Shown in pieces: positions 57,829 to 59,330 of a stretch of 64,000 bases of DNA. This DNA is from Escherichia coli (GTDB lineage Bacteria; Pseudomonadota; Gammaproteobacteria; Enterobacterales; Enterobacteriaceae): assembly GCF_003334405.1 (NCBI RefSeq), contig NZ_QOWM01000007.1; one strand, 5' to 3'. The translations under genes were made by a program, and so were the position numbers. Under the pieces are notes generated by a model. It made no database searches. It saw only the letters and a program-made list of their open reading frames with translations, and was not told the origin of the DNA. Every line of letters starts with the position of its first letter. Within the stretch, counting starts at the first letter, position 1.

Positions 57829-58191
57829 ATGTTTCTAAACTATTTCGCGTTGGGAGTGCTGATCTTCGTCTTTCTGGTGATTTTTTATGGAATCATCGCG
57901 ATACATGACATCCCTTATCTGATTGCCAAAAAGCGCAACCATCCCCATGCCGACGCTATTCATACGGCGGGCTGGGTGAGCCTGTTTACTCTGCATGTTA
58001 TCTGGCCGTTTCTGTGGATCTGGGCGACGCTCTATCAACCGGAGCGTGGCTGGGGTATGCAGTCACATGTTGCGTCGCAGGAGAAAGCGACTGACCCGGA
58101 AATCGCCGCACTTTCTGACCGAATTTCCCGGCTGGAGCATCAACTCGCCGCCGAGAAAAAGACTGACTATTCCACGTTCCCGGAGATCTAA
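57829..58191 (+). CDS. yibI: DUF3302-family small inner membrane protein, 120 aa
   Basis: Translation [45 protein letters not shown]... recognised as YibI; two predicted TM helices. Confidence 0.9.
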
Positions 58192-58193
58192 TT

Positions 58194-59330
58194 ATGGATC
58201 TATTGATTGTTTTAACTTACGTGGCGCTGGCGTGGGCGGTCTTTAAAATCTTCCGCATTCCGGTAAATCAGTGGACGCTGGCGACGGCGGCGCTGGGAGG
58301 CGTGTTTCTGGTGAGTGGTTTGATTTTGTTGATGAACTACAACCACCCTTACACTTTTACCGCGCAAAAGGCAGTGATAGCGATCCCTATCACGCCACAG
58401 GTGACGGGAATTGTTACTGAAGTCACTGACAAGAATAATCAGCTTATTCAAAAGGGCGAGGTGCTTTTTAAGCTCGACCCGGTTCGTTACCAGGCGCGAG
58501 TTGACAGACTTCAGGCTGACCTGATGACGGCGACGCATAATATAAAGACGCTGCGTGCGCAGCTCACTGAAGCGCAGGCCAACACCACCCAGGTTTCAGC
58601 GGAGCGCGACCGTCTGTTTAAAAATTATCAACGTTACTTGAAAGGCAGCCAGGCGGCGGTGAATCCGTTCTCGGAACGTGACATCGACGATGCGCGGCAA
58701 AATTTCCTCGCGCAGGATGCGCTGGTGAAAGGCTCGGTGGCGGAGCAGGCGCAGATCCAGAGCCAGCTCGACAGTATGGTTAACGGCGAGCAATCGCAGA
58801 TTGTGAGCTTAAGAGCGCAACTTACTGAAGCAAAATATAACCTTGAGCAGACTGTCATTCGCGCGCCGAGCAATGGCTACGTTACTCAGGTACTGATCCG
58901 CCCAGGTACATACGCAGCTGCCTTGCCGCTGCGTCCGGTGATGGTCTTCATCCCCGAGCAAAAACGGCAAATTGTCGCCCAATTTCGGCAAAACTCGCTG
59001 TTACGTCTGAAACCCGGCGATGATGCGGAAGTGGTGTTTAACGCGCTACCTGGGCAGGTGTTTCACGGCAAACTGACTAGTATTTTACCTGTCGTGCCAG
59101 GCGGTTCTTATCAGGCGCAGGGGGTATTGCAATCATTAACGGTCGTGCCCGGCACGGACGGTGTGCTGGGAACCATTGAACTGGACCCTAACGATGATAT
59201 CGATGCCTTACCCGACGGCATCTACGCCCAGGTGGCGGTTTACTCCGACCATTTCAGCCATGTTTCGGTGATGCGGAAAGTGCTGCTAAGAATGACCAGC
59301 TGGATGCATTATCTTTATTTGGATCATTGA
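58194..59330 (+). CDS. yibH: HlyD-family membrane fusion (periplasmic adaptor) protein, 378 aa
   Basis: Translation [36 protein letters not shown]... with N-terminal TM helix, coiled-coil and beta-barrel regions typical of HlyD/EmrA adaptors; recognised as YibH. Confidence 0.92.

Follow-up and report, generated by a model that had tools for sequence, protein, structure and literature searches.

How a periplasmic adaptor works when no pump is encoded beside it is the question raised by the yibI-yibH pair (yibIH) of Escherichia coli, which was examined here on a 64,000-nucleotide chromosomal stretch of contig NZ_QOWM01000007.1 (assembly GCF_003334405.1), referred to below as the window; coordinates are those of the window and lie on the + strand unless noted. 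The gene yibI (57829–58191) encodes a 120-residue inner-membrane protein of the DUF3302 family, characterised through its open reading frame (ORF), its Pfam match and its ratio of nonsynonymous to synonymous substitution rates (dN/dS). The gene yibH (58194–59330) encodes a 378-residue EmrA-like periplasmic adaptor (membrane fusion protein), for which the same kinds of evidence were complemented by NCBIfam matches, an AlphaFold2 model and a Foldseek search. The original prediction described YibH as an orphan adaptor without an adjacent ABC, MFS or RND pump, and the annotation of the 20 kb flanking yibIH on each side in E. coli shows no gene of these families and no FUSC gene. E. coli K-12 carries two adaptor genes without an assigned pump, yibH and its paralogue yiaV. 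Export through TolC plays a central part in both drug tolerance and the physiology of the envelope. The prediction also considered partner and substrate not to be established, which agrees with the literature: yibH and yibI are still placed in the y-ome of uncharacterised genes (PMC11551758), and yiaV is listed as TCDB 8.A.1.1.4, "uncharacterized" (PMC10971958). Both genes are already annotated; what is new here is comparative evidence for the pump-less pair as a unit, for its recruitment of TolC-family genes, and for two probably redundant copies in E. coli.

The two genes are closely joined. The yibI stop codon (TAA, 58189–58191) is followed by two bases (tt) and then by the yibH ATG at 58194, as was stated earlier in placing the yibH ORF 3 bp after that stop. 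Shine-Dalgarno sequences can be read upstream of yibI (GAGG, 57820–57823) and, for yibH, within the 3′ end of yibI (GGAG, 58182–58185); the latter, together with the 2-nt spacing, makes translational coupling plausible and supports the co-translation that had been suggested. A megablast search with a 2.4 kb query found the region in 5407 of 5426 complete E. coli genomes, with at least 80% of it present in 5380. Compared with other genera, dN/dS was 0.04–0.15 for yibI and 0.02–0.07 for yibH, values that are approximate owing to saturated synonymous rates. Both genes are under strong purifying selection (0.02–0.15) and are real core genes of E. coli.

Pairing was then surveyed across bacteria by calling ORFs in all loci and searching them with hidden Markov models (HMMs) built from our own alignments of the YibI and YibH families. 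A scan of one genome per species gave at least 590 loci, of which 80 were kept, all from Enterobacterales, and wider diversity was drawn from plasmid records and metagenome contigs; several distant representatives lie on contigs too short to show gene context. The tblastn search of plasmids and chromids with YibI matched 81 records, including Pantoea, Rhizobium, Vibrio, Pseudoalteromonas, Aeromonas and Agrobacterium. An adaptor gene starts −4 to +10 nt after the DUF3302 gene in seven of the eight annotated plasmid or chromid contexts, and in the eighth an IS5 element stands right after the DUF3302 gene with an adaptor remnant beyond it. The survey covered 91 DUF3302 ORFs in 88 loci and the window. 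For 85 of them, an ORF of the YibH family lies immediately downstream in the same orientation (84 intact adaptors and one IS5-cut remnant, in Microvirga), mostly at gaps of −4 to +23 nt, with both median and mode at 2 nt. The remaining six are all truncated by a contig end, so that pairing is found in 85/85 cases where downstream sequence exists. When more loci were added, 94 pairs were counted among 106 DUF3302 ORFs, and distant DUF3302 representatives (45–50% identity) showed the same arrangement.

Such pairs occupy about 22 unrelated contexts in Gamma- and Alphaproteobacteria, Bacteroidota and Sulfurovum-like Campylobacterota. Clustering of the flanking ORFs in these contexts yielded no recurrent ABC, MFS, RND or FUSC family, and only lineage-specific synteny recurred. 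No efflux pump was recognised by reading the flanking ORF translations in three unannotated contexts (Vibrio, Photobacterium and Rhizobium jaguaris), and no FUSC gene stands within the DUF3302-adaptor operon of any DUF3302 locus examined. The pump-less DUF3302-adaptor pair is the conserved unit in every lineage sampled; therefore, YibI is the conserved partner and YibH is not an adaptor bereft of its pump, which leaves the label of orphan adaptor incomplete. Between distant pairs the DUF3302 core is 61–71% identical, whereas the paired adaptor is 36–40% identical, and the best-conserved parts of the adaptor are its membrane hairpin and C-terminal helix.

A candidate for the missing outer component came from five non-enterobacterial contexts, in which the pair and a TolC-family gene (PF02321, OEP) form a three-gene operon with gaps of 0–42 nt. 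The order is OEP-DUF3302-adaptor in L090 and L096, from metagenomic groups, and in L098/L099, from a metagenome-assembled genome of Reichenbachiella (Bacteroidota). It is DUF3302-adaptor-OEP in L100 and L102/L103, two related contexts; the name Sulfurovum-like used for them refers to the DUF1656 protein of L100, which has its nearest relatives in Sulfurovum. No conventional pump is present in these three-gene operons, in three separate lineages and two gene orders. L100 also holds a classical FUSC-OEP-DUF1656-adaptor operon (957–5851 of that contig) 3 kb from its DUF3302-adaptor-OEP operon (8001–11933), an internal contrast that displays the look of a pump-containing relative in the same genome. 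The adaptors linked to OEP genes match the YibH HMM end to end at 316–347 bits. Both the N-terminal hairpin and the C-terminal helix are preserved in them, but they lack about 60 residues of the alpha-helical hairpin, whose length varies within the family. These operons suggest that the pair recruits a TolC-family channel, which gives comparative support to the association of YibH with TolC that the original prediction had raised; E. coli tolC itself is unlinked to yibIH, so the operon evidence comes from relatives. Because the pair, in other bacteria, travels with a TolC-type channel gene and never with a conventional pump, YibI is probably the inner-membrane partner of the adaptor.

The anatomy of YibI was delineated from alignments and hydropathy. 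The protein matches Pfam DUF3302 (PF11742) over residues 3–78 with E = 3.3e-41, and the family is small, with 819 clusters at 50% identity. Predicted transmembrane helix 1 covers residues of about 4–25 (57838–57903; hydropathy window 2.97) and is conserved in the alignment, and the tryptophan-rich helix 2 covers residues of about 48–68 (57970–58032), with invariant W49, W59-P60 and W65. The basic, histidine-rich loop between them, which is predicted to be cytoplasmic, carries the signature R36-x-H38-P39 (57934–57945); an alignment of 31 diverse DUF3302 proteins shows no variation at H38 or P39 and at least 90% conservation at R36. The full set of invariant columns is P29, A33, H38, P39, A43, W49, W59, P60 and W65. 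A C-terminal, leucine-heptad amphipathic helix of residues about 88–110 (58090–58158) is predicted to be periplasmic; its heptad and helical character is kept across the family with variable sequence, and it is missing in the shortest alphaproteobacterial forms. The positive-inside rule suggests an N-out, loop-in, C-out topology. Searching the sequences of the Protein Data Bank (PDB) with YibI gave only weak matches to designed coiled coils, which are artefacts.

For YibH, Pfam identified CusB_dom_1, HlyD_D23 and Biotin_lipoyl_2, and the only NCBIfam model passed was TIGR01730, which describes adaptors in general (score 99.9 bits, cut-off 94.9). The best NCBIfam matches, EmrA/EmrK, MdtN and AaeA, all fell far below their equivalog cut-offs. 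An AlphaFold2 model computed from a 43-sequence alignment reached a predicted local distance difference test score (pLDDT) of 84 and a predicted template-modelling score of 0.61; a single-sequence model was discarded as poor (pLDDT 53). Hydropathy and the model place a two-helix membrane hairpin with a short basic loop at residues 2–19 and 26–50 (58197–58343). This anchor is conserved family-wide as a variant of the usual single-helix or lipid anchor of adaptors, so that the hallmarks noted earlier hold for the anchor, the long helical hairpin and the beta-barrel, with two N-terminal transmembrane helices in place of the one that had been proposed. Lipoyl strands lie between the anchor and the alpha-helical hairpin (residues 97–152 and 161–218; 58482–58847; pLDDT mostly 79–96), giving a domain order typical of adaptors. 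The beta-barrel bears a loop at residues 302–320 (59097–59153), predicted to be disordered with a pLDDT below 50, and an amphipathic helix at residues 355–374 (59256–59315), defined from the model, hydrophobic moment and alignments, ends the protein. This C-terminal helix carries R361, L364 and R366, invariant in two alignments, and the model has no membrane-proximal domain. Foldseek matched 71 PDB adaptor chains at E ≤ 0.001. The top matches were EmrA chains in cryo-EM structures of EmrAB-TolC (8zal/8zar, E = 5.6e-22), followed by MacA and AcrA. YibH has the domains and anchor of the periplasmic adaptor family (HlyD, TCDB 8.A.1) and belongs to it.

EmrA is the best match of YibH by phmmer (E = 1.7e-11) as well as by structure (template-modelling score of 0.60–0.65), and the two share an anchor, a lipoyl domain, a long helical hairpin, a beta-barrel with a long loop and a C-terminal helix, without a membrane-proximal domain. 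However, they are only about 20% identical, and YibH scores 113.5 bits against the 390.8-bit cut-off of the EmrA/EmrK model TIGR00998. EmrA has a single N-terminal membrane helix, compared with two in YibH, and its C-terminal helix is preceded by a long coil, while in YibH about 4 residues lie between the last strand and this helix. The neighbouring gene also differs, being DUF3302 for YibH, with no adjacent DHA2 MFS pump such as that of EmrA. A second resemblance is found in AaeX-AaeA-AaeB and in FUSC-OEP-DUF1656-adaptor operons, where the gene of a small two-helix protein stands directly upstream of the adaptor gene, as in yibIH. YibH scores 75 bits with the AaeA model, and the FUSC pump (AaeB) is missing from all DUF3302 operons, unlike AaeXAB. 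DUF3302 and the YibH membrane hairpin were both considered as DUF1656/AaeX homologues and rejected, as profile comparison detected no homology; hhalign gave a probability of 0.6% for DUF3302 against a DUF1656 profile that is shallow and built from Sulfurovum-like sequences only. YibH is not in the EmrA/EmrK subfamily, and yibIH is not of the AaeXAB type. AcrZ, the small inner-membrane protein of AcrAB-TolC, has one helix, binds AcrB and is encoded elsewhere, whereas YibI has two helices, would be co-translated with its adaptor and has no pump to bind. AcrABZ structures were among the Foldseek matches of YibH.

A paralogous pair overlooked in the original prediction, yiaW-yiaV, lies about 17 kb beyond yibH in E. 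coli, outside the window. It was located in E. coli CFS3246 (37745–39210 of the locus retrieved), with the same gene order and 5-nt spacing. Identity is 77% between YiaV and YibH and 75% between YiaW and YibI, and YiaW is 8 residues shorter in its tail. This pair is also pump-less, with no pump nearby, and adjoins the LysR regulator gene yiaU and the MipA/OmpV gene yiaT instead of mtlA. Judging from sequence, it probably gives functional redundancy with yibIH, and therefore phenotypes of a yibIH deletion alone would be masked. YiaU/LpsR was considered as a known regulator of yiaWV and rejected, since the YiaU/LpsR paper makes no mention of yiaW or yiaV.

Several phenotypes have been published for these genes, none of the papers addressing a mechanism. 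The yibI promoter is induced 5.6-fold in urine, and deletion of yibI gives a competitive index of 0.33 in urine and reduced adhesion (PMC5404293). Of the Keio transporter mutants, the yibH deletion ranked within the 15 most sensitive to azithromycin, a group that also contains mdtN, acrB, tolQ and tolR (PMC9405208); Table 3 of that paper, which contains the yibH deletion, is captioned "ornidazole", while the text shows an azithromycin screen. Deletion of yibH in Klebsiella lowers plaque formation by evolved phages (PMC11796411). For the second pair, an IS1 insertion in yiaW was reported for macrophage-evolved E. coli (PMC5495878), and a higher Ca2+ transformation efficiency of a yiaW deletion is cited in PMC12844161.

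On this basis, we consider that YibI and YibH have about an even chance of being cognate partners that supply the inner-membrane and periplasmic portions of a conduit dependent on TolC, in which YibI has the position of the pump. YibH, held in the inner membrane by its two-helix hairpin, would presumably form a hexameric tube as adaptors usually do, and YibI would take the place of the ABC, MFS, RND or FUSC pump of classical tripartite systems through a physical contact with YibH. Docking of this assembly onto the unlinked TolC of E. coli would complete a conduit across the envelope through which a substrate is exported or released. The hexamer of EmrA grips a periplasmic helix of EmrB via the conserved beta-barrel loop 294–317 (PMC13139468). 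Because the YibH loop 302–320 appears positionally equivalent in the predicted model, the C-terminal helix of YibI becomes a candidate for the gripped element, and we speculate that it docks in the beta-barrel ring of YibH as the EmrB helix does in EmrA. ATP-driven transport by the pair alone is unlikely because almost no protein mass faces the cytoplasm; energisation without ATP would leave the proton-motive force or passive flow. A wider proposal is more tentative and in our view has clearly less than an even chance: DUF3302, a YibH-type adaptor and a TolC-family channel may constitute a previously unrecognised class of tripartite exporter, in which a YibI-type ring and the adaptor hairpins replace the pump and export is driven by the proton-motive force or occurs as gated passive release. 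Its two redundant copies in E. coli could explain silent single knock-outs. If a DUF3302 protein is indeed the inner-membrane partner, tripartite systems would need no conventional transporter, and the pair would represent a new minimal architecture.

Several observations weigh against a YibI-YibH conduit. Linkage to OEP genes was found only in short-hairpin relatives and not in the long-hairpin enterobacterial type. A Na+/H+-exchanger gene (PF00999) follows the OEP gene at a gap of 0–11 nt in L100 and L102 (8001–11980), and its product could be a hidden transporter partner in the Sulfurovum-like loci. We know of no tripartite pump whose energised component is a protein with two transmembrane helices. 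Fusions of DUF3302 to an adaptor are absent from the 150 best family representatives, all of which are short proteins. The azithromycin phenotype comes from a single high-throughput screen with many odd hits (PMC9405208), and yibH serves as a neutral integration site whose replacement MG1655 tolerates with no reported defect (PMC5852967). The YibH family also lacks the strict hairpin-tip motif R-x3-L-x6-S/T. This motif is the TolC-binding tip of adaptors. Its absence was, however, judged uninformative, because the tip of E. coli EmrA, with which that of YibH aligns, also lacks the strict form.

In the main competing explanation, YibH would serve as a spare adaptor for an inner-membrane pump encoded elsewhere, with YibI as a small accessory or assembly subunit like AcrZ or AaeX. 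Candidates for this pump are the ABC exporter YojI, which is TolC-dependent and has no known adaptor, or an MFS or FUSC pump. This explanation accords with the closeness of YibH to adaptors of MFS and FUSC pumps (EmrA/EmrK, MdtN and AaeA), with the established pattern of a small membrane protein gene just upstream of an adaptor gene (DUF1656 in L100), and with the exchanger gene after the operons of L100 and L102; moreover, no domain for energy coupling is evident in YibI, which has only two membrane helices. Classical systems, however, have the pump and adaptor as their co-encoded core, with an outer-membrane factor that is optional and often unlinked. The OEP-linked DUF3302 operons reverse this: across three lineages and both gene orders they contain an OEP gene and no pump, and the roughly 22 contexts have no recurrent pump family. 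The higher conservation of YibI than of its adaptor is unusual for a dispensable accessory, and comparison with the shallow DUF1656 profile detected no homology of DUF3302 to DUF1656. We regard a spare adaptor as rather unlikely. Still less probable, and to be given only a slight chance, is a non-transport complex for envelope structure, tethering or stress response, for example a periplasm-spanning scaffold, perhaps independent of TolC in E. coli. The published phenotypes do concern the surface or envelope, namely adhesion (PMC5404293), phage plaques (PMC11796411) and Ca2+ transformation (cited in PMC12844161), and genes found repeatedly beside the pair encode an envelope lipoprotein, DUF1471 proteins, a PqiB-like protein and MipA/OmpV. 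The variation of about 60 residues in the helical hairpin would also be compatible with such a role. These neighbours are, however, lineage-specific rather than universal, the fold and all domains of YibH are those of channel-forming adaptors, and operon linkage to TolC-family channels points to a conduit.

A service of yibIH to the adjacent Rhs toxins, in delivery or immunity, had been suggested as something to examine, and physical adjacency in the window is all that speaks for it. Homology to island-free Escherichia and Citrobacter stops 1 nt past the yibH stop in an alignment of the yibH end, and many partial megablast matches end at query base 1932, which is position 59331 of the window. 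At this place, right after the yibH stop, the left junction of the rhs island is marked by the G-rich run GGGGGAGGGGGGAG (59331–59344), which forms the boundary of the unit and not a part of it. Most Enterobacteriaceae, other Escherichia and E. coli E69 have mtlR-mtlD-mtlA followed, in divergent orientation, by yibI-yibH-yibF-selA-selB-yiaY-aldB-yiaW-yiaV. Neither E. coli E69 nor other Escherichia or Citrobacter has the island, and there yibF directly follows yibH. The island is thus an insertion that starts 1–2 nt after the yibH stop, which makes its adjacency accidental. The pair is, furthermore, conserved in dozens of genera without an rhs gene nearby, so that the proposed link finds no support and a false lead is removed. 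It is just as improbable that yibIH is cryptic or decaying and without current function in E. coli. Such decay would fit the use of yibH as a neutral integration site (PMC5852967) and rare natural disruptions: the IS4-like element IS421 splits yibI in strain RM10410 (NZ_CP042350.1), and strain ECCHD184 (NZ_CP033250.1) keeps only the first 519 query bases, most of yibIH being deleted. Against it stand the low dN/dS of both genes, the intact pair in 5380 of 5426 genomes, an active promoter and the fitness defect of the yibI deletion in urine (PMC5404293). Rhs linkage and gene decay are both essentially excluded. The YibI-YibH conduit remains the reading that we prefer.

The surroundings of yibIH are as described earlier, with mtl upstream and the AT-rich rhs island downstream. 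The divergent mtlA (55379–57292, − strand) is separated from yibI by a 536-bp spacer. The G+C content is 52–53% in yibI and yibH compared with 35% in the DNA downstream of yibH, where the annotation lists Imm57, rhs fragments, yibG and yibA. A predicted promoter-like sequence, TCTACA-19-TACAAT (57645–57675), lies 154 nt upstream of the yibI ATG and reads toward yibI; it has one exact match in the window and none in 100 shuffled sequences. A sigma-70 survey by systematic evolution of ligands by exponential enrichment (SELEX) lists this hexamer pair for the mtlA/yibI spacer and files it under mtlA (PMC3946193), though its orientation is toward yibI. The sequence TATACA-18-TATAAT, which the same survey gives for yibIH, is absent from the window. 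A general scan for promoters and terminators gave no more than chance level, with no terminator after yibH. No Rfam match was obtained for the spacer and both genes, and defence-protein models (PADLOC) gave only two coiled-coil chance matches with E of about 0.005; these searches found no other feature hidden on either strand of yibIH.

Some minor observations were made on the loci collected. Genes of DUF1254 and DUF1214 proteins adjoin the pair in three alphaproteobacterial or metagenomic contexts (L093, 2029–5029; L006, 7254–9887; L008, 8337–11782). A 222-residue predicted lipoprotein without an NCBIfam match adjoins it in Pantoea, Serratia, Biostraticola and "Enterobacter pulveris", with its gene on either side and in either orientation (L057, L076, L077, L081 and L085). 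The record CACSKA010000004.1 (L059), titled Chryseobacterium sp. 18061, encodes a YibI 72% identical to that of E. coli and shows the synteny typical of Enterobacteriaceae (mtlR-mtlD-mtlA, yibIH, yibF and selAB); it is probably a contaminated or mislabelled assembly. In the window itself, mechanical ORF calling at 54001–55467 (− strand) gave an mtlD ORF of 488 residues, compared with 382 residues for the annotated mtlD (1149 nt). The extra N-terminal stretch of this ORF holds the repeated peptide PSPHGEG, which is taken to be a translation through repeats of the repetitive extragenic palindromic type in the mtlA-mtlD spacer, and hence an artefact of ORF calling rather than a longer protein.

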